Assembly (NCBI GenBank): GCA_963706595.1
Contig: OY970166.1
Span: 1,792,001-1,856,000 of the forward strand
DNA length: 64,000 nucleotides
From: an uncultured cyanobacterium
GTDB taxonomy: Bacteria > Cyanobacteriota > Cyanobacteriia > Cyanobacteriales > Nostocaceae
Reading direction: 5' to 3'
Shown here: in pieces, positions 36,301-50,424 of the stretch
How positions within the stretch are numbered: position 1 is the stretch's first letter
Layout: each line of letters begins with the position of its first letter
Position numbers and translations under genes: made by a program
The notes under the pieces: model-generated
What the model saw: the letters and a program-made list of their open reading frames with translations, nothing else
What the model was told of the DNA's origin: nothing
Databases searched by the model: none

Positions 36301-36654
36301 TTATTGATGTACAATAATAGCTTCTCGACTCATTTCAATGTAAGAGTGCTGTTGAAATAGTTCCACTATAGAGGGAAAATTAAGAGAAAAAAGATTTTCT
36401 AGTTCTGGATTTTTGATATTACCCGTCGTGATTAAAAGTAGTTTATAAGGTTGCTCAATTGTTAAAAAAGAGTCAACAAAATCATAATCTTTAGTGATTA
36501 AGATTCTATTTTGCTGAATTGAGATAGCATTTATTTCAATATCTGATGTAGCATTTTGCGCTGGTAAGTCTCTGGTATGGATTGTGTCGTAATTTGAGGC
36601 TCTGAGAAAGTTAGCAAGGCGGACTGGTAACTGAGCATCAACAATGAATTTCAT
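36301..36654 (-). CDS. DUF5615 PIN-like toxin
   Basis: MKFIVDAQLP, SD.EI and ILITKD.DF motifs. Overlaps the DUF433 gene by 4 bp. Confidence 0.88.
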   Translation of the reverse strand: MKFIVDAQLPVRLANFLRASNYDTIHTRDLPAQNATSDIEINAISIQQNRILITKDYDFVDSFLTIEQPYKLLLITTGNIKNPELENLFSLNFPSIVELFQQHSYIEMSREAIIVHQ

Positions 36655-36887
36655 GAAGCGATTTTATGAATGCTTTTGACTTGGCTGAGTCTTGCTGCAA
36701 ATAACAGAACAGCCAAAATATCTTCAGATTCTAAGTCGTCATAATCTGCCAATATTTCCTCAGTAGTCATGCCAGAACTGAGCATTTCTAGAATAAACTC
36801 AACTGGATAACGTAGTCCTCTAATGCAGGGTTTTCCGTGACAGATATGAGGGTTCAGGGTGATACGTGTTAGAAGTGTGTCATCCAT
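36651..36887 (-). CDS. DUF433 antitoxin
   Basis: RITLNPHICHGKPCIRGLR and EEILADY motifs. Confidence 0.9.
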   Translation of the reverse strand: MDDTLLTRITLNPHICHGKPCIRGLRYPVEFILEMLSSGMTTEEILADYDDLESEDILAVLLFAARLSQVKSIHKIAS

Positions 36888-36939
36888 GCTGTGAGATATC
36901 CACAAAAATGATCATCATCTATCAGCATATCATCAGGAG

Positions 36940-37259: not shown

Positions 37260-38189
37260 ATGAAAGTTGTATCTATTATTAACTACAAGGGTGGAGTTGG
37301 TAAAACCACTATCACCGCTAATCTAGGAACAGAATTAGCCTGTAGAGGTTATCGAGTGTTATTAATTGATGCTGATCCTCAGTGCAGTTTAACATTTTCT
37401 TTTTTTAACTCTTCCGAGCAATTGGACTGGTTTGAAGAAAAAGAATTGACATTAAAAACATTTTTTACTTCATTAATAAAGCCTATTCCCAACCCCAAAT
37501 CATTTGGTGACGTGAGGGTGAAGGTAAGTAAAATTAATAAAAAAATACAAGAACAGGGTGGAAAAGGTTCATTACACTTAATTGCTTCTCACTTAAAATT
37601 AATTAATATTGATATGGAACTTGCTGGTATCTTGGCAGGTGGAATTGGTAGACATGAACAAGCATCAAGATACTTCAATTGTTTTAGTTCAATTTCTCAA
37701 GGATTAGAAAAATTAAAGTCAAGTTATGACTTTGTTTTAATTGATTGCCCTCCCAATTTCAATATTGTCACTAAAACATCTATAGCAGCTAGTAATTATA
37801 TCTTAATACCATCAAGACCAGACCATTTATCAACATTAGGAATATCCTATTTGAAGGAAAGTGTTATGGAGTTTGTCGAAGAGTATAATGACTATACAAA
37901 ACAAGCTAACATTTCAGTAATTTATCCTAAAATTATTGGAGTAATATTTACAATGGTAAAAGTTCATGCTGGGCAACCAATTAATGCTCATCAAAGATAC
38001 ATGAATAATGTTGTAAAAGAACAAGAACTAAAGATTTTTGATGCTTTTATTAGAGAAAATCAAACTACATTTGCAATAGCTCCAGAAAATGCTATTCCTG
38101 TTGTTTTAAGTGCGGCTTCACCATCACATATTGTTCAAGAACTTAAAGAACTGGTAGATGAATTTGAATATTTGATTAATTTAGATTGA
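37260..38189 (+). CDS. ParA/Soj-family ATPase (orphan)
   Basis: Deviant Walker A KGGVGKTT, DADPQ and DCPP motifs. Confidence 0.9.
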   Translation: MKVVSIINYKGGVGKTTITANLGTELACRGYRVLLIDADPQCSLTFSFFNSSEQLDWFEEKELTLKTFFTSLIKPIPNPKSFGDVRVKVSKINKKIQEQGGKGSLHLIASHLKLINIDMELAGILAGGIGRHEQASRYFNCFSSISQGLEKLKSSYDFVLIDCPPNFNIVTKTSIAASNYILIPSRPDHLSTLGISYLKESVMEFVEEYNDYTKQANISVIYPKIIGVIFTMVKVHAGQPINAHQRYMNNVVKEQELKIFDAFIRENQTTFAIAPENAIPVVLSAASPSHIVQELKELVDEFEYLINLD

Positions 38190-38200
38190 TAGAAAATACT

Positions 38201-38800
38201 ATGGATAATTACCAAGTTAACAACGAACATCACAATGATATTCCAAAGGAAGTAATTGAATTATTCAGAAAACAATGGATAAAATTTAATGATGATCAAA
38301 AAAATGATATTTTGCAAGGTAACGCTCAACTTAGGGTAAATTGTTTTTATCCAAAAGCTGTTAGAAAGAAAGATATTTCATCTCGCAAGCCTATTGATAA
38401 AACTCATCAACATGAAAATTTAGACTATACTCAACTTTCACAAAGATTAGATGAGTTAAATTCAAAAGAAGAGGGAATAGACTTTTTGAAATCGTCTTTC
38501 TCTACAAAAAAATCTCTAGAGTCTTTTGCAAAATTTTTGAAAATCTCGACACAAAAACAAAATCTACAAGAACTGAGAGAAAGTATTGTTTCTGCAACAA
38601 TAGGTTATCGGTTAACAATACAGTTTATTGAAAAAAGAAGAAGACCAAAACTAGAGGATGAATTTTTAGATGAAAATGAAAAATTTACTCAAGTAGTTAA
38701 ATTTTGTATTTTTATTGATCTGGAATTGTATTTTCTTCTTCATATTGAGCTATTGCTTGTTCAATTATTTCATTACTCACATCTGTTAGATCAGACTTAG
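38201..38800 (+). CDS. Hypothetical protein downstream of ParA (3' end runs antisense into the relE-like gene)
   Basis: AT-rich ORF starting 11 bp after the ParA stop. The last ~29 codons overlap the convergent toxin gene. Confidence 0.65.
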   Translation: MDNYQVNNEHHNDIPKEVIELFRKQWIKFNDDQKNDILQGNAQLRVNCFYPKAVRKKDISSRKPIDKTHQHENLDYTQLSQRLDELNSKEEGIDFLKSSFSTKKSLESFAKFLKISTQKQNLQELRESIVSATIGYRLTIQFIEKRRRPKLEDEFLDENEKFTQVVKFCIFIDLELYFLLHIELLLVQLFHYSHLLDQT

Positions 38801-39089
38801 AATAAATTGTAGTGAGTATAATTCCTTGAGCAGTTTTTAGATAATAAATTACTCTATATCCTCCACTTTTTCCTTTTTGAATATTAGTATTTTTAACACG
38901 AACTTTGAAAACTTGATATTTAATTCCCGCAATTCTATCTCCAGGAATTTCACCTGCTTGTAGTTGATCAATTAAAGGTTGAATATCACTACGAATGGAA
39001 CGATAGCGTTTAGCCAGTTCTCGCAAATCCTTTTGAAAACGAGGAGTAAGAGCAATTTCAATTGGTAGTGGTTCATTATTATTCTGCAT
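38712..39089 (-). CDS. RelE/ParE (HigB-like) toxin
   Basis: TPRFQKDLR.L.KRY, KGKSGGYRVIY and IYSKSD motifs. Confidence 0.88.
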   Translation of the reverse strand: MQNNNEPLPIEIALTPRFQKDLRELAKRYRSIRSDIQPLIDQLQAGEIPGDRIAGIKYQVFKVRVKNTNIQKGKSGGYRVIYYLKTAQGIILTTIYSKSDLTDVSNEIIEQAIAQYEEENTIPDQ

Positions 39090-39333
39090 CTATCCCTTCC
39101 CACATTTGTGAAAGGGGTATAGTTTGTCCACTTAATGCTTCTTTTATTCCCTGATTAATACCTTCAATTACAATTTCTGTGGGTGTTTCTTCAAGAAATG
39201 AATTTTTCTCTAATTGGAAAATAGATTTTTGTAGCAATTGCAATGTATAAGTTTCCACAGAAAGACCTTGCTGTTGTGCTTCCTGTGTTAAATACTGTTC
39301 TAATTCTGGTGGTAAGCTGAGGATTAGTGTCAT
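39079..39333 (-). CDS. Putative cognate antitoxin
   Basis: MTLILSLPPELEQYL (RHH-like) and GQTIPLSQMWEGID. Overlaps the toxin start. Confidence 0.78.
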   Translation of the reverse strand: MTLILSLPPELEQYLTQEAQQQGLSVETYTLQLLQKSIFQLEKNSFLEETPTEIVIEGINQGIKEALSGQTIPLSQMWEGIDAE

Positions 39334-39489
39334 AAGTCTATTGTGAGTGACTTTATATATTGTAAACCTGTAAAAACCAAAAATTAACCCCAAAATACCA
39401 ATGTGTGATGTTGGGTTTCTTTCCGTCAACCGAACCTACGACTTATAATTGATCGGATAACCTGCACATATAATCTTAGGCATGAGACT

Positions 39490-42673: not shown

Positions 42674-43558
42674 TTACAACTTCTGCAACAACTCCTGAGT
42701 TAACTGAAAAAATGCTTTAGAACCAGATGATTGCGGTGCAGTTAACACAACCGGCATAAAACTATCAACAGCCTTAGCCACATTCATATCAACTGGTATT
42801 TGTGCCTTACAGATTTTATCAACACCGAAATCTTCCACAACCCGGTGCATAACTTGTCTGTAATATCTGCCATTTAGCAGATTAGAACTAGCCATACTAA
42901 AGACAATTCCCAACATTTTGATATTTATCTTCGCTTCATGTTCGTGACTGTCTTTTAATTGAGCGATACGTCTTTCTAATAGCTGAATACCTACAACTGA
43001 CAAAGGTTCTGGTTTAGCAGGAAGAATGTAGAAATCACTTGCAGCTAAAGCACTACGAGTCAATAAATTATAGCCAGGCGCACAATCTAAAATGATGAAA
43101 TCATATTCCTCGCGCACTGGTTTGATAATATTATTAATCAAGACTCTTTCAAAGCGATTCCAAACAGTTTCAAAATCCGGTTCACCCAAAGCAGTTGCTT
43201 GTTGATGCAGCATTTCTGAGACTATAAATTCATCGTATAAATCAATGTCTCCGGGTAATAAATCTAGCCCAGCAAGATTACAAACTTGAGATTTGATAAT
43301 ATCATGAATTGTCAGTTTTGCTTCTGGTTCAGGGTTGATAACTTGGTCTATCAAATATCGAAACGTCTTGCGTTGTTTGCGAAGCTTGGCAAAGTCTAAC
43401 GGCGACATTAAACTAAGCGTAGCGCTGATTTGGCTATCTAAATCGAGGACAAGCACGCGCTTACCATGATTTTTAGCTAAACAAGTCGCGATATTGACGG
43501 TAAGGGTGGTTTTACCAACGCCGCCTTTCATATTTGCAGTCGCAATTACGTATCCCAT
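42674..43558 (-). CDS. ParA-family ATPase
   Basis: NMKGGVGKTT, DLDSQ and DCAPG motifs. Confidence 0.92.
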   Translation of the reverse strand: MGYVIATANMKGGVGKTTLTVNIATCLAKNHGKRVLVLDLDSQISATLSLMSPLDFAKLRKQRKTFRYLIDQVINPEPEAKLTIHDIIKSQVCNLAGLDLLPGDIDLYDEFIVSEMLHQQATALGEPDFETVWNRFERVLINNIIKPVREEYDFIILDCAPGYNLLTRSALAASDFYILPAKPEPLSVVGIQLLERRIAQLKDSHEHEAKINIKMLGIVFSMASSNLLNGRYYRQVMHRVVEDFGVDKICKAQIPVDMNVAKAVDSFMPVVLTAPQSSGSKAFFQLTQELLQKL

Positions 43559-43837
43559 TAGTTAAGTCCTTTGTTGACGCGTTCCCATATCTAGGTAGCG
43601 TACACCTGTGCTGAATAATTAAAACTGCTATTAAATTTAATATTTTCCGTAATCTGAAAAATTAACGTTGTATCCATTGAGGCTGTTAGATTATAGCAGT
43701 AAGGTTTTCTTTAGGCGTAGCTTGGGTTGAGCAACGCGTCACCCAACGCTGGAGAGGATGTTGGGTTTGGTTACGTCAACCCAACCTACATTTTTTTGCC
43801 TCAAATTAGGTGTGTCACGCCAGTAGTAAGGTTTTAT

Positions 43838-46486
43838 TTAAACAGAAGGTATGCGAATATTTTTAGCGAATAAGCTTTGTAAGCGGTGTGTTTGAGCGCC
43901 CATTTGGTAAAGTAAATCACCTTTGCCTAACAGATAGGCGGCTGATGTTTCTGTACCTCCCAGGACAATTTTTGAGTCGGCTTCGCTAGCAGTTCGCAGG
44001 GCGACTCTTCCGGGTAAGTTGGAACGGATAATGGGGGTAACAATTCCGGCTTCTGGGCGTTGTGTGGCAATAATCAGATGAATGCCGGCGGCTCTGGCCA
44101 TTGCTCCCAAACGTTTTATACTTAATTCTAATACTTTGCGGATTTCTTTTTCTGCCATAAAGTCGGCATATTCATCAAAAATGCAGACAATTCGCGGTAA
44201 AATCTGGGAAGAACGTTGATTGTAGCTAGTTAAATCAGCACATTTGGCGTTCTCAAATTTTTGGTAACGAGATTCCATCTCTGCAACTAATTGTTCCATA
44301 AGTTCGACCGCGCGATCGCTATCTTTAACCACTGGTGAATATAACCAAGGCATTTTTTCAAACTCTGGAAATGTGACTCGCTTGGGGTCAACTAGGGCAA
44401 TTTTGAGATGTTGGGGAGAATGACGATATAGTAAACTGAGAAGGAGCGATCGCAAAAACTCACTTTTACCGCTTCCAGTTGTACCACCAACCAAAAAGTG
44501 ACAAGTATTCGGATCAGATAAATCAGCTTCTAGCAAATACCCCTCTATACTCACCCCCATTGCAATTTTTACAGGTACTGTGGGCGGTAAGAATTGCGGC
44601 TGAATATAGGCTTCAAAACTAGCAACTTGCCTATCTGGGCGTGGCAAATCAATACTAACATAACCAGCTTGGGGAGCAATCAAAGGCGGCTTTTCTAACC
44701 CCAACTGCACCTGTAAATCGGCTGATAATTTAATTATCGCATTAACTTTTACACCTTTTACACCCAGATGGGGTTTAAGCTTAACTCTGATAAAAGCTGG
44801 TCCCACAGCAGCCCCCAGGTAGTCAACACCAACATTAAAAGATTGCAGAGTCGTCACCAATTCTGCACCGATAACATCAGCATTTACAGATTCTGCTTCA
44901 TTCCTGATTATGGGAGTATCTTCTTCTATATTTTCCCCAGTCATATCTTGAGTAGAATTTGCATCTATACTCTTATCTTCAGAGAGTGAATTATCCACCT
45001 CATCTGCAACAGACGCAGTAAAAAAAGTTTGACACTTTTGCTGCTGGGGGCAAATTTCGCACAGATAAGATTGAGTTGTGGGTGGTGGCGCATTGGGTTG
45101 TGGTGGTTCCCAACTTAGCCATTGCTGCATCTGGAATAATTTGTGGGGAATCAATTGATTAACTGTATTTTCTAGCTGTTCCCAAGAGTATTTATATTCC
45201 TTAAACTCTGGTAAAACACAATAAACCGCCGAATCAACAGGTACTTTCTTCTTTTGCCATAGCATATAACTATAAAGTGAAACCTGGGCTAATTGTGATG
45301 ATGGGTCTACAGGCTGATAGGTTTTAAACTCTACCATACACAGACGATTTTGAGCAAAGTTAAAAACTAAACAATCAAATTCACCTCTTACCAGTTGCTG
45401 TGTGCCATCAGGTAAAGTAAAGTCATGCTCAATACTGCGTTCTTGAGATATAAAGGTGTTACTAATAACGGTTTCAGCATTGCAATACTGGCGATTAATA
45501 ATCAGCAATTCGGCAAAGCGTTTTATTAGTCCTTGTAAACCTTGCCAAACTTGTAGTAATGTTTGCCCGTGACTAGGGTTTTTATGGATTACTGTTTGCA
45601 GGTAGGGAAAAAATTCTAATTGATAAAATATTTGTTGCATTTGCGAGGAAACTTCCTCTAGCTTTAGCTGTCCTGCGGCTGGCTTTAATACTGCTTTGAA
45701 TCGTGGTTCAACCAGCGCTAATTTTACGAAATTATCTGCTAATTTATGAAAGGGGTTGCCAATACCATTAGCACTATTTGGTGGAAAAAATATGGCTTTG
45801 TCACCAAATTTATGATTTAAATAAAAAAGCCGTCCGCATTCAAAAGCAATTCTAACTTTAGTAACATTTAAAGGTGAATTTACAGATTTTTCTGTTATTG
45901 GATGTGAAATGTTATTTACCATATTAAAAATATTAGCTACAGTATGAGGTTCTGATATTTCTAGTAACTTTCTGTGTACAGCAGCCAAATAAACTGTATC
46001 CATTGCGGCATATTTTACTTGCTTTTGGCTCAGAGGACGCTTTCCCCAATCGCTGCTTCCTTCATCTGCATCGACATTGACAAAATGACAAAGTTCTGCT
46101 GCTAAAGTTTTAAGTTTTAAATTGGAAACTTCCAGGCGTTCACGAGTAATTTTTCTAGCTATTTGGTATGTACAAGTAATATTTTGTGCGAGTTTTTTGC
46201 CTAAATACTTGAGGTCAAAACCAGCATTGTGAAAAACCTTCTCAATATTGGAATTAATCATGATTTGGTTAATGAAATATTCTGCCAAATCAGGTTTATC
46301 TAATACATCGAGAAGATAAGCCGATACGCCTGTAGAATCTGTATGATCAGCCAATACCTGAATCAGCGATAATCTGGGATAGTGAGTAGTAAAATCGGCA
46401 ATTTCTGTATCTAACCACAGAGTTTTGTGAGATGTTAATGTGGAGATGAACTCCCGGATTTCTGTTGCTGTTGTCAGGTAGTGCAT
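43838..46486 (-). CDS. Fusion: DEDDy 3'-5' exonuclease + Cas4/AddB-like PD-(D/E)XK nuclease + FtsK/SpoIIIE motor
   Basis: Exonuclease: LDTE, FHNAGFD, YAAMD. Nuclease: EC, GEFD, VEFKT, QVSLY, CEICPQQQKC. Motor: GGTTGSGKS, IFDEYAD, ARAAGIHLIIATQRP. No N-terminal TM segments. Confidence 0.9.
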   Translation of the reverse strand: MHYLTTATEIREFISTLTSHKTLWLDTEIADFTTHYPRLSLIQVLADHTDSTGVSAYLLDVLDKPDLAEYFINQIMINSNIEKVFHNAGFDLKYLGKKLAQNITCTYQIARKITRERLEVSNLKLKTLAAELCHFVNVDADEGSSDWGKRPLSQKQVKYAAMDTVYLAAVHRKLLEISEPHTVANIFNMVNNISHPITEKSVNSPLNVTKVRIAFECGRLFYLNHKFGDKAIFFPPNSANGIGNPFHKLADNFVKLALVEPRFKAVLKPAAGQLKLEEVSSQMQQIFYQLEFFPYLQTVIHKNPSHGQTLLQVWQGLQGLIKRFAELLIINRQYCNAETVISNTFISQERSIEHDFTLPDGTQQLVRGEFDCLVFNFAQNRLCMVEFKTYQPVDPSSQLAQVSLYSYMLWQKKKVPVDSAVYCVLPEFKEYKYSWEQLENTVNQLIPHKLFQMQQWLSWEPPQPNAPPPTTQSYLCEICPQQQKCQTFFTASVADEVDNSLSEDKSIDANSTQDMTGENIEEDTPIIRNEAESVNADVIGAELVTTLQSFNVGVDYLGAAVGPAFIRVKLKPHLGVKGVKVNAIIKLSADLQVQLGLEKPPLIAPQAGYVSIDLPRPDRQVASFEAYIQPQFLPPTVPVKIAMGVSIEGYLLEADLSDPNTCHFLVGGTTGSGKSEFLRSLLLSLLYRHSPQHLKIALVDPKRVTFPEFEKMPWLYSPVVKDSDRAVELMEQLVAEMESRYQKFENAKCADLTSYNQRSSQILPRIVCIFDEYADFMAEKEIRKVLELSIKRLGAMARAAGIHLIIATQRPEAGIVTPIIRSNLPGRVALRTASEADSKIVLGGTETSAAYLLGKGDLLYQMGAQTHRLQSLFAKNIRIPSV

Positions 46487-46516
46487 TGACTGAAATTTTA
46501 TAAGAAATAATTAACT

Positions 46517-48511
46517 TTAAGCAATCAAACAAATTAATTGGTCTTCTACCTTAGCTTTGTGGTTGATAATTTTTACTTTCCTTTCCTGACATAATAGGTC
46601 AATTAAGTGTTGAGTATCAGTTTCTTTTACATCAGGAAACTCTCTGGCTGCTTGTGAAATTAAAGTAGGAACACCCATGTAACCTTGGGTTTTGACTAGA
46701 TTCAATAAAAACTCTTTGACTGGTCTTAAATCTGGTTTTTCATTTTTAATAAATTTACTAGGTTTAGATTTAGGAACAATTTCTAAATCCTGCAATAAAA
46801 CACAATTTTGCAAAAGTTCAGACTGACGTATTAAAGTTTGCAATGTCTGCAAATTAATAGTTTTGTATCCAATAACTAATTCCTGCGAGAGTGCAGAATT
46901 AATCAAGTAATTGTAAGTAGCTAAGTAATGAACTGACTGAAGATTTGGTTTAATATGAATATGTTGAGTCTGGGAAAAAATCTGGCTGTAAATTTTATAT
47001 CCTGCAAGTTTTACTGTTCCTACATTACTAATTCTTATTAAGTAGAGTTTTTGGCAGAGATTTTGCTCAATTGCTCTTTGACAAGCATTCATCACATGAA
47101 AAAAACTTGCCATATTGGCATTTTCTGTCCATATTATTCCTATTCTTTCTCTTTGTTTAGGCTGTTGATAACTCAAGGAATAGCCAGTATATTTGCCTGA
47201 TATCAGTTTAGGTTTTACTAACTGTACTTCTAATGCTTCTAAAGCCACTTGCAACATCCGAATTAAATCAGGCGATGATAGCAAGGAAATTTTAGGTAAT
47301 TTTTCCTGAACTTTTTTATATTCTTGCTGCCATAGTAATTGAAACTCTGCTTGAGGATCTACTTTTGGTCTGCGACCATTAATACTATTTTTATATTTTT
47401 GATACTCACCCTTACCTAGAAGTAATGCATTTCTAGGGTTGGTTTTACCCCCTGGAAAATTGGTTTCTAAAATTTGGCGATTTAAAGGAGTAATAGGAGA
47501 TTCTGGTTGAGGTTTAGCTGCTTGATGTATTGCCTGTAATCTATACTGCCAAAGTGCCTCAGCTTGATTTAAGTCAATATTTTTAAGACTAACTAATTTA
47601 TCCATTCTAGCTTTATCAGACTGTGTAATACATTTCCAACTATGCCTCCAAGGATCTGTGACTATAGTAATTATAATTAGAAAATTCTGGATATTTTCAT
47701 TGTGAAGAGTAGTGTTTACATTAAATATTGCTTGTGGATTAGACAACCAATTTGGTATACTTTCAACCTGATCAAAACATAAAACAATTGGCTGAGTTGC
47801 AGTAGAAATCTTGCCAAAGTTTGCTAATATGTTTTTAGCTGCATCTTCTGTATCAATGCACTTTTTTATTTTTAAAGCTTGCATAGATTCTTCACTTAAA
47901 TCATCTCCTCGTAACCACTCACAGGCTAGGGGATAAAGTTCTGGATCTGTGAGGTAATGTAGAACTCCAAAAAAAATATCAGCATTATAAATGCTGGAAC
48001 TTTGATAGTTCTGCTTGAGATGTTTAATAAATTTTTGACGATCATTCAGCAATAATTCCCAAAAATTATCATTAAACAGCTTCTTTGTCAGGCTATTTTT
48101 TGTGAAAGCGGATAAACTTTTAAGCCAGAGAATTAACTGAGATTCTTGCTGTCCATCTGGTACTTGAATTAAACTATCTACTGTATAACGCAAGATATGT
48201 CGCCAGATGTAATCATTATCAACCCAAGGTCCTATATAAGCAAAAAAAGCTTTAGAATTGAGAGTGCGTTTTAGTCTACCTAAAAGATAGCTTTTGCCAG
48301 AACCTGAATCACCAACAAGTAAGATAGTTCTACTAAAATTATCTGTAGTTACTAAGTTGAGAACTTCTTCAATTTCAGTTATGGCTTCTTGATGAATTGA
48401 ATCAACTATAGCTTCTTTATCTTCGTCTTTGACCCAAAAATTCCCTGTCCTTGAATTTACACGGTCAAAGGGGTTAATTTCGCGCTTAATAATGTCGTCG
48501 ATAGATGCCAT
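46517..48511 (-). CDS. P-loop ATPase (RcaG-like by recollection)
   Basis: Walker A GDSGSGKS and Walker B IVLCFDQVE. 664 aa. Confidence 0.85.
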   Translation of the reverse strand: MASIDDIIKREINPFDRVNSRTGNFWVKDEDKEAIVDSIHQEAITEIEEVLNLVTTDNFSRTILLVGDSGSGKSYLLGRLKRTLNSKAFFAYIGPWVDNDYIWRHILRYTVDSLIQVPDGQQESQLILWLKSLSAFTKNSLTKKLFNDNFWELLLNDRQKFIKHLKQNYQSSSIYNADIFFGVLHYLTDPELYPLACEWLRGDDLSEESMQALKIKKCIDTEDAAKNILANFGKISTATQPIVLCFDQVESIPNWLSNPQAIFNVNTTLHNENIQNFLIIITIVTDPWRHSWKCITQSDKARMDKLVSLKNIDLNQAEALWQYRLQAIHQAAKPQPESPITPLNRQILETNFPGGKTNPRNALLLGKGEYQKYKNSINGRRPKVDPQAEFQLLWQQEYKKVQEKLPKISLLSSPDLIRMLQVALEALEVQLVKPKLISGKYTGYSLSYQQPKQRERIGIIWTENANMASFFHVMNACQRAIEQNLCQKLYLIRISNVGTVKLAGYKIYSQIFSQTQHIHIKPNLQSVHYLATYNYLINSALSQELVIGYKTINLQTLQTLIRQSELLQNCVLLQDLEIVPKSKPSKFIKNEKPDLRPVKEFLLNLVKTQGYMGVPTLISQAAREFPDVKETDTQHLIDLLCQERKVKIINHKAKVEDQLICLIA

Positions 48512-48565
48512 AGTTAATTACCGTGAGAGAGCAAAATGATTTATGCAACACTAATTTATCTATTG

Positions 48566-49358
48566 TTAGTCCACTCTTATAAAGAACAAGGAACCACCAA
48601 CATTTTGAGGAATTCCAGCATTAATTTGTTCTGTAGTATAAGGTGTAGGATTCTAGCAATGAACTCAATTCAATTTTGTCAGTTCTTTGCAAGCGATACA
48701 GCGCCTGATCTAATTCATCTCGTGACAGGGGCGGTTGTAACTTCTGACGTAAATGAAAAATGGGTAAATAATTCTCTGTACCTATTTCTTTATCTAATTT
48801 CTGAATAGTTTGTAAGATATCTTCATCAGTGAGATGCTGAATTGGCTTGACTCGTAAATTCTGACGCAAAAACCGCAGGTAATTATTGAGTAAGTCCAGA
48901 TTGATGTTTGCTTTTCCTTCGGGGGTGTATTCATCCCGCAAATACTCAATTCCTCTTTGGGTTAGCCAAACCTCAGCTTGTGTCCTTTTCATTTTGATTT
49001 CAACTGAAATCAAGCCCCTATCACCCAGCGCTTTCAATATCGTGGTTCGTTCTGCTGCTTTGAGTGAGGTGATTTTGCTGGGGGCGATACCTGCACTTTT
49101 ACTTATCTTCTCCAGCACCTTGATTTCTTTATCTGTGATGGGTACTTGAGCCGAATCAAGTTTCAGCAGTGCCTGACCTGGAGCTAAAATTTTAACTGTG
49201 GCTATCTCACGAGAATAGTCTACCAGCTCGCGATCGCCTAAATTTTGACAAATTTTATCCTTACCCTTAAAACTTTTAAAGGGACTTCTACTCAGACTTG
49301 ACCGATAATTAGCACACCCCAACAAATTTAAAAGGAACTTTAACTCATTCGTATCCAT
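48566..49358 (-). pseudogene. RcaD-like putative DNA-binding protein with a +1 frameshift at ~48650
   Basis: MDTNELKFLL N-terminus and ENYLPIFHLR...SRDELDQALY. The C-terminal PYTTEQINAGIPQNVGGSLFFIRVD* lies in the +1 frame, ending at 48566. Confidence 0.7.
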
Positions 49359-49476
49359 GCGTGTCAGCCTGCTTGTACATAACTCAACAATACTGTAGCT
49401 TGAATGGCACTAATTTACACATATTTTCCATAATAGCGATAATTGGTGCTATTAGCTACAGCCAGTTATGCAGACA

Positions 49477-50424
49477 TTAACCCCTGATTTGGCGCAACAC
49501 GTTAACAGCCTGACCCCTTAAGCCAACAGGTAACAACGACAAACCCAAGCCAGTCAAAGCCTTAGCAGTAGAAAAAGACCTCCCCGCCAAAACTAGTTCC
49601 TTCCCTTTTTGGGTTTCACCTTTCTCAATTAAACGCAAACCCAATACTAATTGGGCTTCAGCTAGGCGATTTTGTCTAACTTTTTCTAACTTATCTGAAT
49701 CAAACTGATAATTTTCTAAATACCGAATTTTATCAAATAAATAAGGAACTTCTCTATTAATACCTTGCTGCTCCGCATGGTATCTATATTCCATCAATAA
49801 CTCAGATAAATAATAACCTTTTTTATCAGCCAAAGCCAGCCGGACAAATAAATCATTATCTTCACAATTTTGAATATTGGGCAGCATAAAACCCACTTCT
49901 TGTAAAGTCTGACGACGAAATAAAGTTGCCCCAATTTGAAAACTTTGGTTGATAAAAACTACCTCTAATAAATTCTCTACTATCCCGGCTTTTAAATTAG
50001 CCCGACCCCAGCGACGAGAATTTTCCTGTGTCTTTGACTCATCCCGGATATTTTCAATATCAATTATCCAATGATCTGTACCCACAAAATCAATGCTAGA
50101 ATCTTGATCAAGTATTGCCGCAGTCTTTGCTAAAAAATTAGTTGTTAGCCGATCATCATCATCAAATTTAATAAAATATTCACCCTGCGCCGCATCAAAA
50201 CCAGAGCGCATATTATTGCTTTTACCAATATTTTGCGAATGACGGATATATTTAATCCGGTTGTCTGTGTACTGTGACATTAATTCAGGTGTGCCATCAG
50301 TTGAGCCATCATCACAAACAATTAGTTCAAAATCTTGATAAGATTGCTGAAGTACGCTTTCTATGGCGTAAGGCAGGAGATTTTGCCGATTAAATGTAGG
50401 AATGCAAACACTAATTTTAGTCAC
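49477..50424 (-). CDS. GT2 family glycosyltransferase
   Basis: SVCIPTFNR, CDDGSTD, FDDDD and CED motifs. Confidence 0.93.
   Translation of the reverse strand: MTKISVCIPTFNRQNLLPYAIESVLQQSYQDFELIVCDDGSTDGTPELMSQYTDNRIKYIRHSQNIGKSNNMRSGFDAAQGEYFIKFDDDDRLTTNFLAKTAAILDQDSSIDFVGTDHWIIDIENIRDESKTQENSRRWGRANLKAGIVENLLEVVFINQSFQIGATLFRRQTLQEVGFMLPNIQNCEDNDLFVRLALADKKGYYLSELLMEYRYHAEQQGINREVPYLFDKIRYLENYQFDSDKLEKVRQNRLAEAQLVLGLRLIEKGETQKGKELVLAGRSFSTAKALTGLGLSLLPVGLRGQAVNVLRQIRG

Follow-up and report, generated by a model that had tools for sequence, protein, structure and literature searches.

Three adjacent cyanobacterial genes, rcaD, rcaG and a nuclease-FtsK fusion gene, constitute one conserved module that is inherited as a unit, and we put at roughly 50% the probability that their products form a single DNA-targeting machine belonging to the predicted class of Orc/CDC6-coupled HerA/FtsK capture systems. 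Rakesh, Aravind and Krishnan (NAR 2024, PMC10853773) arrived at this class by comparative genomics and predicted that its gene sets capture and destroy unwanted DNA, a prediction repeated in PMC12839542. The locus described here, part of a 64,000-nucleotide stretch from an uncultured cyanobacterium (the window), had originally been flagged as a candidate undescribed system; with the architecture already predicted in PMC10853773, that claim has to be given up. The features of the locus are collected in Table 1.

Table 1 Features of the rcaD-rcaG-fusion locus, in window coordinates
Feature	Coordinates	Strand	Basis
rcaD orthologue, in-frame part, 245 aa, three predicted winged-helix modules	48621..49358	-	homologue names, structure model
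Displaced rcaD 3' end, conserved tail out of frame	48566..48651	-	alternative-frame reading, 20 loci, four related runs
rcaG orthologue, 664 aa, predicted Orc/Cdc6-type AAA+ ATPase with C-terminal winged helix	46517..48511	-	structure model, fold matches
Fusion gene, 882 aa: DEDDy 3'-5' exonuclease, Cas4/AddB-like PD-(D/E)XK nuclease, soluble FtsK alpha/beta motor	43838..46486	-	
Exonuclease domain, residues 2-176	45959..46483	-	DNA_pol_A_exo1 match, conserved residues
PD-(D/E)XK nuclease region, about residues 205-490	45017..45874	-	conserved residues, orthologue PF12705
FtsK alpha (residues 539-615) and motor (638-865)	43892..44872	-	domain matches

The three co-oriented open reading frames are separated by 54 nt (rcaD to rcaG) and 30 nt (rcaG to the fusion gene), as first described. 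The former gap relies on a corrected RcaD end at 48566, and the correction was right, the conserved RcaD C-terminus being encoded in another frame that stops there. Two compositional observations stood only in part. The HIP1 site (GCGATCGC) is absent between 44453 and 49230, so that the gap reported from ~44460 to ~49220 is real; with 59 sites in the 64 kb of the window and further HIP1-free gaps of 3.7–4.5 kb, it is no more than chance expectation. The description of the DNA as AT-rich clearly applies to rcaG (GC 0.33, where the whole window averages 0.408, and GC3 0.235) and is unclear for the fusion gene (0.39) and rcaD (0.40).

The tripartite composition of the fusion protein is readily recognized. 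DNA_pol_A_exo1 matches the N-terminal domain with an E value of 9e-30, and the exonuclease residues D26, E28, D91, Y159 and D163 are invariant among 16 orthologues; a standalone paralogue of this domain, 56% identical, is encoded elsewhere in the genome. Progressing to the second nuclease, residues D371, E386, K388, Q401 and Y405 and four cysteines, C217, C476, C479 and C485 (C476-x2-C479-x5-C485), are likewise invariant in the 16 orthologues. Cas4/AddB-type Fe-S nucleases combine RecB motifs with one N-terminal and three C-terminal cysteines, the pattern that the fusion protein and these orthologues possess. Matches to Cas4 profiles are weak (E 0.006–0.08); PF12705 is recorded on most fusion orthologues and also found in split forms, with no Pfam match to it at E≤0.1 on the protein of the window. 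The C-terminal motor comprises FtsK_alpha (E 5e-8) and FtsK_SpoIIIE (residues 638–811, E 1e-41) matches, with a Walker A motif GGTTGSGKS (668–675) and a Walker B motif at D771-E772. Ftsk_gamma was not matched at E≤0.1 and a hydrophobic segment is lacking, the maximum Kyte-Doolittle 19-residue mean being 1.11, which bears out the initial description of a soluble motor without membrane anchor. The nuclease motifs then quoted (DTE, FHNAGFD, YAAMD and D...EFK...QxxxY) are all in the translation, and a nuclease-translocase aimed at DNA, as proposed, is the reading that best fits these domains.

RcaG was modeled with high confidence (pLDDT 90.4, pTM 0.90). Its AAA+ part, residues 6–378, carries a GDSGSGKS Walker A motif and an invariant D247. 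Two fold comparisons led to the same protein family: i) a Foldseek search with the model returned ORC4 and Cdc6 (E about 2e-4), and ii) the best VIA matches to residues 6–378 were Cdc6 and ORC subunits (Z 16.3 to 13.8), among them Drosophila Cdc6 (Z 16.3, rmsd 3.3, 241 residues aligned) and 1fnn (Z 15.0). Residues 583–664 match winged-helix domains in VIA with Z scores of 11.0–11.2. By its modeled fold, RcaG belongs with the Cdc6/ORC-type AAA+ ATPases and ends in a winged helix. The region of about residues 380–580 is a well-modeled alpha/beta domain, ordered helix, three strands, helix, strand, for which whole-model searches gave no specific fold match and an atlas look-up was empty; hhalign of this region against the PD-(D/E)XK region of the fusion protein gave a probability of 0.1.

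Homologues of RcaD carry the NCBI name ‘transcription factor RcaD’ and are 265–286 residues long; the window protein is 69% identical to that of Tolypothrix tenuis PCC 7101, in which the accession numbers of RcaD and the fusion protein are two apart. The RcaD model comprises three winged-helix modules, and the best 50 VIA rows were all winged-helix domains, placed at residues 1–144 or 190–280 (Z 7.0–9.1), which marks RcaD as a predicted three-winged-helix DNA binder. DndG, SspB and FokI chains were not among the RcaD fold-search matches, nor was a specific likeness to these proteins seen, and 23 RcaD sequences queried against the PADLOC models gave no consistent match to any one model. The modeled RcaG-RcaD complex scored 0.62, against 0.00 for the best of three controls; this score was attained by 116 of 157 solved complexes and by 2 of 215 mismatched pairs, counts that are approximate because our own alignments were used. 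At least 58% of contacts were in agreement across the complex runs, with a partner pLDDT of at least 76. This model supports binding between RcaD and RcaG, with a predicted RcaG interface on RcaD that includes residue 253 and the tail residues 268–271 and 276.

It is this tail that the window copy has lost. A one-base insertion, an extra A at 48651/48652, shifts the rcaD frame and removes the protein from residue 253 onward, including the invariant Y257, L274 and F275 and the predicted contact residues; the conserved C-terminus, NPTPYTTEQINAGIPQNVGGSLFFIRVD followed by a stop (…AGIPQNVGGSLFFIRVD and stop), is encoded in the alternative frame. Near 48832–48843, 17 linker codons of relatives are also missing. 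If the inserted base is real, this copy may be impaired. That the window copy is a decaying relic, with the frameshift real and the RcaD-RcaG contact disabled, is a possibility we take seriously while holding it short of even odds. RcaD is intact, tail included, in all 20 fetched loci, base 48651 is absent from all contigs of the four related runs, and erosion is heavier in other Nodularia, N. chucula retaining rcaG and an exonuclease stub and N. harveyana rcaG only. Against decay, neither rcaG nor the fusion gene is disrupted and every catalytic residue is kept, and the runs compared at 48651 are those of relatives of the strain, the best holder having 0.30 of the words. The extra base may also be an assembly error: indels of this kind may have entered the assembly, which is 94% complete where relatives reach 99–100%, and a second gene, dndC-like, is split in it as well.

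Elsewhere, the module holds together. The fusion gene was present in 34 of 301 sampled cyanobacterial genomes, spread across many genera; rcaD adjoined rcaG in every one of the 34 carriers and all three genes were contiguous in 32. A survey of 80 named loci, with denominators that vary with the flank available, placed RcaD upstream in 76/79 and all three fusion parts downstream of rcaG in 61 of the 71 loci with enough flank, as would be expected from the earlier proposal that the three genes belong together. Alternative forms were also encountered. The 1348-residue protein P0473 of Limnochordaceae, from another phylum, unites an RcaG-like AAA+ domain, PDDEXK_1, FtsK_alpha and FtsK in one polypeptide (E 3e-26 against RcaG residues 13–363, E 6e-57 against fusion residues 346–873). 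In split forms the exonuclease or PD-(D/E)XK domain is a separate gene, and shuffled forms carry protein kinase, trypsin-like and YbjN domains as insertions. The rcaD-rcaG pair occurred without the fusion in five sampled genomes; in G158, G178, G194 and G198 it stands between housekeeping flanks with no nuclease-motor neighbor, which implies that the pair is active in its own right to some degree.

In cyanobacteria the locus is ancestral, vertically inherited and not mobile. Identity of the fusion protein tracks that of IleRS (r 0.86) and of the ParA-like protein (r 0.78), and the same neighbors recur across genera (parA-like genes at 47/80 named loci, glycosyltransferases at 45/80, ileS at 20/80). 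A single record among 72,556 plasmids carries the module. Spread by transfer is not supported by these data, and the patchy distribution is explained by repeated loss, the locus having been eroded or lost time and again. Within the own family, 36 genomes were sampled, and 20 of them have none of the three genes and no RecC either. The cyanobacterial module is an ancient set of chromosomal genes that frequently goes missing. Mean pairwise identities of 0.61 for RcaG, 0.71 for the fusion protein and 0.80 for IleRS were obtained, and RcaG and RcaD evolve fast. The anticipated toxin-antitoxin surroundings were recovered as TA-like pairs at 36301–36905 and 38712–39429. A defense island was not: PADLOC returned no real match and no known defense gene for 27 flanking ORFs, and the housekeeping neighbors are constant across genera.

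Taken together, a working model for the operon can be proposed. RcaD would dock beside the ATP site of RcaG via its C-terminal winged helix and tail, and the pair would recognize DNA much as initiators or loaders do, recruiting or loading the FtsK ring. The ring would then drive duplex DNA toward the two nucleases it carries, the Cas4-like one and the 3'-5' exonuclease, with degradation of both strands as the outcome. The purpose would be to clear the cell of DNA that is foreign or unwanted, plasmids and phage genomes for example; this predicted defense role is our best guess and the most likely one. The faster evolution of the recognition parts and the repeated erosion speak for this reading. 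Against it stand the immobile cyanobacterial locus, the flanks free of known defense genes, the absence of a modification gene from the operon, the rcaD-rcaG pairs with no nuclease-motor neighbor and the promoter binding described for RcaD of Tolypothrix PCC 7601.

The same parts could serve the host. A motor, a Cas4/AddB-like Fe-S nuclease and a 3'-5' exonuclease are what an end-resection enzyme requires, and the operon might be a DNA-repair or recombination machine that handles double-strand ends in the way of RecBCD, AddAB or HerA-NurA, with RcaD-RcaG as its loader, rather than an immune system. The stable chromosomal position and vertical inheritance are in line with repair, as is the distribution of RecC, found in 27/301 of the genomes sampled and never in a family with the operon (0/35 in the own family); the excerpted text of PMC5101192 describes large-genome cyanobacteria as lacking recBCD. 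We nevertheless judge repair unlikely: the own-family genomes devoid of both the three genes and RecC indicate that the module is dispensable, it has eroded repeatedly, RcaG and RcaD evolve fast, and the inserted kinase and protease domains are of a sort characteristic of conflict systems.

A further reading, to which we assign only a slim chance, is that the cyanobacterial branch is a capture system domesticated long ago, in which RcaD reads host sequence signatures instead of DNA modification; the operon contains no modification gene. The signature would act as Chi does for RecBCD and might be promoter-like or a highly iterated host motif, the machine sparing or processing the many chromosome copies of the cell and shredding DNA without the signature. 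If true, this would account for the first isolation of RcaD as a promoter-binding ‘chromatic adaptation’ factor, and would amount to self/non-self discrimination without modification.

A mainly transcriptional role for RcaD and RcaG, as regulators of phycobiliprotein operons in keeping with their original naming and with no functional tie to the fusion gene, strikes us as very improbable. Such a role derives from Tolypothrix PCC 7601, in which, according to the passages of PMC2799420 on these proteins, RcaD binds phycobiliprotein promoters (citing Noubir et al. 2002), binds the cpc2 promoter and changes red-light operon expression, and RcaG, an ATPase downstream of rcaD, is thought to aid binding; the pairs without a fusion gene would also suit it. 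It sits poorly with the fusion gene adjoining rcaG in 32/34 carriers, with P0473 as a natural polypeptide linking an RcaG-like ATPase to a nuclease-motor, and with the recurrence of Orc/Cdc6 ATPases and multi-winged-helix partners beside nucleases across phyla (PMC10853773), and a gene pair found in many genera yet missing from 20/36 genomes of one family is a poor fit to a core light-harvesting regulator. That the fusion gene acts as the cellular FtsK, segregating chromosomes and resolving dimers when the cell divides, as the names in most database records, ‘DNA translocase FtsK’ and ‘cell division FtsK/SpoIIIE’, the FtsK alpha domain and its being the sole gene of the genome above the FtsK_SpoIIIE cut-off might imply, is scarcely credible for an unanchored protein with two nucleases and no gamma domain match that is not found in those 20 genomes and is truncated or lost in several lineages.

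Should the capture-system assignment be true, two proteins cited for twenty years as light-color regulators would be the targeting subunits of a DNA-degrading motor, and the predicted class would acquire a model that is tractable and whose DNA-binding subunit is known. In Nostocales, the cyanobacterial copies could hinder the transfer of plasmids and the engineering of genomes, and the natural series of eroded forms reveals which operon parts can be the first to go. The window copy itself would be a further, slightly damaged member of the class.

Comparison with known systems places the operon as follows. The phosphorothioate-dependent defense module SspFGH (PMC8092258) also has three genes, one Walker A protein and a large protein ending in an FtsK-like motor, and fusion residues 490–865 match the PADLOC SspH model with an E value of 8e-67; the match covers the motor part only (profile positions 1359–1742 of 1766), the protein ending 17 residues beyond it. 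RcaD and RcaG gave no match to the SspF and SspG models at E≤0.1, and SspF, SspG or ssp modification genes were not found in the operon flanks, so membership in SspFGH was rejected. A dndC-like gene occurs in sampled own-family genomes regardless of operon presence. Cellular FtsK/SpoIIIE shares the alpha and beta motor domains and Walker A and B motifs, and differs in that the fusion protein has no membrane anchor or detected gamma domain, bears two nucleases and is not universal. HerA-NurA, AddAB and RecBCD are end-processing machines that, compared at the level of domains, likewise couple an ATP-driven DNA motor to nucleases, the four conserved cysteines being those of a Cas4/AddB-type nuclease; here, the motor is of FtsK type, is fused to the nucleases and is accompanied by an Orc/Cdc6-type and a multi-winged-helix partner.

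The first two genes had been likened to those of Tolypothrix/Calothrix PCC 7601, and they are indeed RcaD and RcaG orthologues by NCBI naming, with the gene order and ATPase given in the same passages of PMC2799420. There, the pair was described as regulating phycobiliprotein operons; here, it is tied to a nuclease-translocase and occurs widely, in many genera of cyanobacteria. The main text of PMC10853773 mentions neither RcaD nor cyanobacteria, and it calls the capture-system neighborhoods mobile, in contrast to the ancestral, syntenic and vertical cyanobacterial locus; the inactive-REase insert between the AAA+ core and C-terminal wHTH was not confirmed in RcaG. The operon otherwise fits the published prediction (section 22) feature by feature: an Orc/CDC6-type AAA+ ATPase with a C-terminal winged helix, an active PD-(D/E)XK nuclease (here predicted from D371, E386 and K388), a motor with an FtsK alpha domain and a fused 3'-5' exonuclease, a separate protein of two to four winged helices (three predicted in RcaD), and domains spread over one or several polypeptides.

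The three-gene set described in the original prediction is real, and the gaps of 54 and 30 nt given for it are correct once the end of rcaD is set to 48566. The HIP1-free stretch is real as well; extending from 44453 to 49230 (4.8 kb), it is the largest gap among the 59 HIP1 sites of the 64 kb, with a length that is within chance for that number of sites. As a sign of foreign origin it is ruled out by HIP1 gaps of 3.7–4.5 kb elsewhere in the window. The AT-richness ascribed to the set holds for rcaG alone (GC 0.33, GC3 0.235 versus a window mean of 0.408) and is not a clear trait of the other two genes. A promoter and terminator scan of 43400–49700 returned no excess over shuffled sequences (16 versus 18.8 and 8 versus 4.5, respectively), and therefore no operon boundaries were drawn from it. 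In the RNA-seq library X4 of a related organism, a single 6.8-kb contig spans all three genes (window 43825–49400), and RNA libraries of a second related organism yielded several contigs across the operon genes; such contigs are no proof of transcription, and DNA carry-over may have occurred.

Genes of the operon in window coordinates, and Pfam domains of the fusion protein in residues
Feature	Position	Strand	Basis
rcaD ORF, as in frame	49358..48621	-	245 aa, ORF listing
rcaG ORF	48511..46517	-	664 aa, ORF listing
fusion ORF	46486..43838	-	882 aa, ORF listing
DNA_pol_A_exo1 domain	fusion residues 2-176	-	Pfam E 9e-30
FtsK alpha domain	fusion residues 539-615	-	Pfam
FtsK/SpoIIIE motor	fusion residues 638-811	-	Pfam E 1e-41

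In the nuclease-FtsK fusion protein, the exonuclease is followed, ahead of the alpha domain, by a PD-(D/E)XK region; PF12705 is annotated on most fusion orthologues, and the window copy has no Pfam match there at E ≤ 0.1. Residue conservation was mapped on 16 aligned orthologues drawn from several families. The intact DEDDy exonuclease proposed from the sequence is borne out by residues D26, E28, D91, Y159 and D163, and the RecB-type nuclease by D371, E386, K388, Q401 and Y405, all of which are invariant in 16/16 orthologues. Equally invariant are the Walker A and Walker B motifs of the motor and cysteines C217, C476, C479 and C485, a four-cysteine pattern that we take to be that of Cas4/AddB-type iron-sulfur nucleases. 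The fusion possesses no hydrophobic segment, in keeping with the predicted soluble motor devoid of a membrane anchor, and no Pfam match to a gamma domain. It is the sole gene over the FtsK_SpoIIIE cut-off in the 5.57-Mb genome. Large Nostocales plasmids (Nostoc PCC 7120, Tolypothrix PCC 7601 and others) carry a different FtsK-like gene, whose 36–39% identity to the fusion is confined to the motor part; the PCC 7120 plasmid gene All7666 is listed as the FtsK of that strain in a review (PMC7766704).

Outside the window, the same genome (G000) encodes a standalone exonuclease of ~324 aa (G000:C1:1655258-1655791) with 56% identity to fusion residues 1–178, and most of the order's sampled genomes have similar genes of ~305–320 aa. 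Because the earliest-branching carriers (genomes G038 and G250, and a Pseudanabaena plasmid) are without the exonuclease domain, this domain may have been added to the fusion later, from the standalone host gene.

Sequence-level searches with RcaG returned weak P-loop matches at most, and its profile matched only P-loop proteins among solved structures, all at E ≥ 0.01. The structural model is confident (pLDDT 90.4, pTM 0.90): for residues 6–378 the best VIA matches are Cdc6 and ORC subunits (Drosophila Cdc6, Z 16.3, rmsd 3.3, 241 aligned; Pyrobaculum Cdc6, Z 15.0), followed by TnsC and MuB, and the Foldseek hits include ORC4 and Cdc6 (E about 2e-4). Residues 583–664 form a winged helix (Z 11). 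For the middle domain (~380–580), an atlas look-up of residues 385–585 returned only an unnamed cluster (best score 0.89), and comparison with the nuclease region of the fusion by hhalign gave a probability of 0.1. RcaD was modeled from the intact Nodularia homologue P0124 (pLDDT 78, pTM 0.43). The model comprises three winged-helix modules; the best 50 VIA matches are all winged-helix domains (Z 7.0–9.1), and Foldseek found no match at E ≤ 0.001. Database homologues of this small protein are named 'transcription factor RcaD'; for Tolypothrix PCC 7601, PMC2799420 reports binding of the cpc2 promoter by RcaD and presents rcaG as the ATPase gene downstream of rcaD.

An interface between RcaD and RcaG is supported by complex modeling. 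The RcaG-RcaD pair scored 0.62 versus 0.00 for the best of three controls, with at least 58% contact agreement between runs and a partner pLDDT of at least 76. The same mark was reached by 116/157 solved complexes and 2/215 mismatched pairs, counts that are only rough because own alignments were used. The predicted contact involves the C-terminal winged helix and tail of RcaD, and on RcaG residues 68–69 beside the P-loop, 285–292, 310–311, 351–365 and 543–553.

In the window, neither rcaG nor the fusion gene is disrupted, and rcaD, broken near its 3′ end, is without its conserved tail. Homologues are 265–286 aa long and share the tail …AGIxQxxGGxLFFIxVN, which the window encodes out of frame with a stop at 48566; rcaD is intact and carries this tail in 20/20 fetched related loci. 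The frameshift deletes RcaD from residue 253 onward, including predicted contact residues 253, 268–271 and 276. In contigs from related sequencing runs, base 48651 is missing in every case (4/4 runs), and there are 61 letters versus 10 in the window at 48832–48843, corresponding to a 17-codon gap in the RcaD alignment. The frameshift may have arisen by mutation or be an artefact of the assembly. A search for sequencing runs of the window's own strain found none, the best run sharing 0.30 of words. Assembly completeness is 94% for G000 versus 99–100% in relatives, and a dndC-like gene outside the window (C1:4763199-4764535) has TIGR03183 matches in two frames (369 and 180 aa), as against a single frame of ~460–600 aa in 83 other sampled genomes; the split gene and the lower completeness hint at indel errors or pseudogenes in the G000 assembly.

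To follow the linkage of the three genes, each protein was used as a query against one common sample of 301 cyanobacterial genomes, and the tables were tallied by hand. The nuclease-FtsK gene, whole or split, is present in 34/301 genomes; rcaD adjoins rcaG in all 34 carriers (34/34), and the neighborhood is conserved, with the order rcaD-rcaG-fusion contiguous in 32/34. In the remaining genomes, G071 and G162, the fusion is located away from rcaD-rcaG. RcaG relatives are encoded on 516 genome stretches, and a further set of 80 named loci found via RcaG was scored by simple criteria that missed some split alignments; here, RcaD is upstream of RcaG in 76/79 loci and all three fusion parts are downstream in 61/71, counting loci with enough flank. 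A 1348-aa Limnochordaceae protein joins an RcaG-like ATPase (E 3e-26), PDDEXK_1, FtsK alpha and FtsK in one chain, and matches the fusion at E 6e-57.

Operon variants encode the exonuclease or the PD-(D/E)XK domain as a separate gene, or possess inserted protein kinase, trypsin-like protease or YbjN domains. In one locus (L040:11508-14873), the exonuclease and FtsK motor of a 1121-aa protein are separated by a Ser/Thr protein kinase domain; in another (L041:1738-7043), the exonuclease gene and the motor gene carry YbjN-like domains, and next to them are a gene for PD-(D/E)XK by itself and a kinase-trypsin gene. Some genomes have a second locus (L039:6918-11903, L036:5169-10358) in which rcaD precedes a tandem pair of rcaG-like genes, with no nuclease-motor gene, and at L011 an additional rcaG-like gene lies ahead of rcaD.

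Within the window's own family, the set is present in 16/36 sampled genomes (the window's genome counted) and all three genes are absent in 20/36. It is also absent from 165/165 genomes grouped as '8 more' families, in which the four hits at E ≤ 1e-10 (30–37% identity) cover the exonuclease alone or the FtsK motor alone. The distribution is thus patchy, a trait that the original prediction put up for testing, and the cause of the patchiness is loss. A parA-like gene directly follows the operon in 47/80 loci, glycosyltransferase genes are upstream in 45/80, and ileS is nearby in 20/80; the parA-like gene is kept at 77–91% identity in 5/5 tested genomes that are without the operon. Across 16 loci, the pairwise identities of the fusion follow those of IleRS (r 0.86), and across 44 loci those of the ParA-like protein (r 0.78). 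RcaG tracks flanking proteins less well (r 0.55–0.60) and evolves faster, with a mean identity of 0.61 versus 0.80 for IleRS. Eroded copies are found at several stages. In two genomes of one genus (L026 and L027), only the last ~180–195 fusion codons remain beside parA, and DDE transposase genes follow the remnant in the one with an annotated flank. What remains in Nodularia chucula is rcaG and a stub of the exonuclease, and in N. harveyana only rcaG; an internal deletion is present in Pelatocladus, and three species keep the exonuclease and nuclease with the motor gone. In the window itself, the ParA-like ATPase gene directly downstream (42674-43558, minus strand) is better conserved than the operon (77–93% identity), and where the operon is absent, a second, divergent parA-like gene often stands next to the first.

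Among 72,556 plasmid records, rcaG occurs with the fusion on one, a 329-kb Pseudanabaena plasmid. In this sole plasmid-borne copy (L122; Pseudanabaena sp. PCC 7367 plasmid pPSE7367.01, 190629-195588), a hypothetical gene and a P-loop NTPase accompany an FtsK fusion from which the exonuclease is missing. The copy is bordered by a phycobiliprotein lyase gene at one end and by a DEAD/DEAH helicase with a SWIM-finger gene at the opposite end.

Domain content, conservation of catalytic residues, co-inheritance, the natural fusion and the modeled RcaD-RcaG interface are computed results, from which a putative mechanism can be sketched. RcaD and RcaG would form an initiator/loader-like pair for recognizing DNA and placing the FtsK ring on it; from the ring, duplex DNA would pass to the fusion's own Cas4-like nuclease and 3′-5′ exonuclease, which together could remove both strands. 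A role against foreign DNA is the favored reading, for which the class prediction discussed below, domain shuffling, fast-evolving recognition parts and frequent loss argue; counting against it is a stable, vertically inherited, non-island locus without a modification partner. A defence-island setting, which the original prediction put up for testing, is not borne out: the 27 flanking window ORFs match PADLOC defence families by no more than a P-loop or receiver-domain fragment. Other window genes include a DUF433 gene with a DUF5615/PIN-like gene (36301-36905), a 204-aa ORF partnering a second ParA-like gene (37260-38800), and a 116-aa ORF upstream of a ParE/RelE-like gene (38712-39429). The main rival is a RecBCD-like repair role, consistent with the finding of RecC in 27/301 genomes and in none of the families holding the operon (according to PMC5101192, recBCD is missing from large-genome cyanobacteria), but the 20 own-family non-carriers are without both operon and RecC. 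Complementarity with RecBCD inside the own family is ruled out, RecC being found in 0/35 genomes. A phosphorothioate link is likewise ruled out: a dndC-like gene is present in 35/35 own-family genomes, with or without the operon, and is therefore not linked to it.

With respect to known systems, neither RcaD nor RcaG has a model in PADLOC 2.0.0, and 23 RcaD and 50 RcaG-family sequences gave scattered P-loop or chance matches (at most 6/50, mad8). The fusion matches SspH at E 8e-67, a match confined to the motor; for SspH of SspFGH, C-terminal FtsK likeness alone is reported (PMC8092258). The operon was first taken for a candidate undescribed system, but its architecture had already been predicted from genome comparison as an Orc/CDC6-coupled HerA/FtsK capture system (Rakesh, Aravind and Krishnan, NAR 2024, section 22; PMC10853773). 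Those neighborhoods encode an Orc/CDC6 ATPase with an inactive REase inserted before a C-terminal wHTH, together with an active REase and a HerA/FtsK ATPase, one set including the FtsK alpha domain; in the role proposed for them, invader DNA is intercepted and pumped to the nuclease (PMC10853773). A 2026 paper of that group repeats the proposal (PMC12839542), and neither section 22 of PMC10853773 nor the corresponding passages of PMC12839542 report a bench test. RcaD and cyanobacteria are not named in the main text of PMC10853773, and full-text literature searches found no link of RcaD to FtsK or defence. The window operon is a further member of this class predicted by genome comparison.
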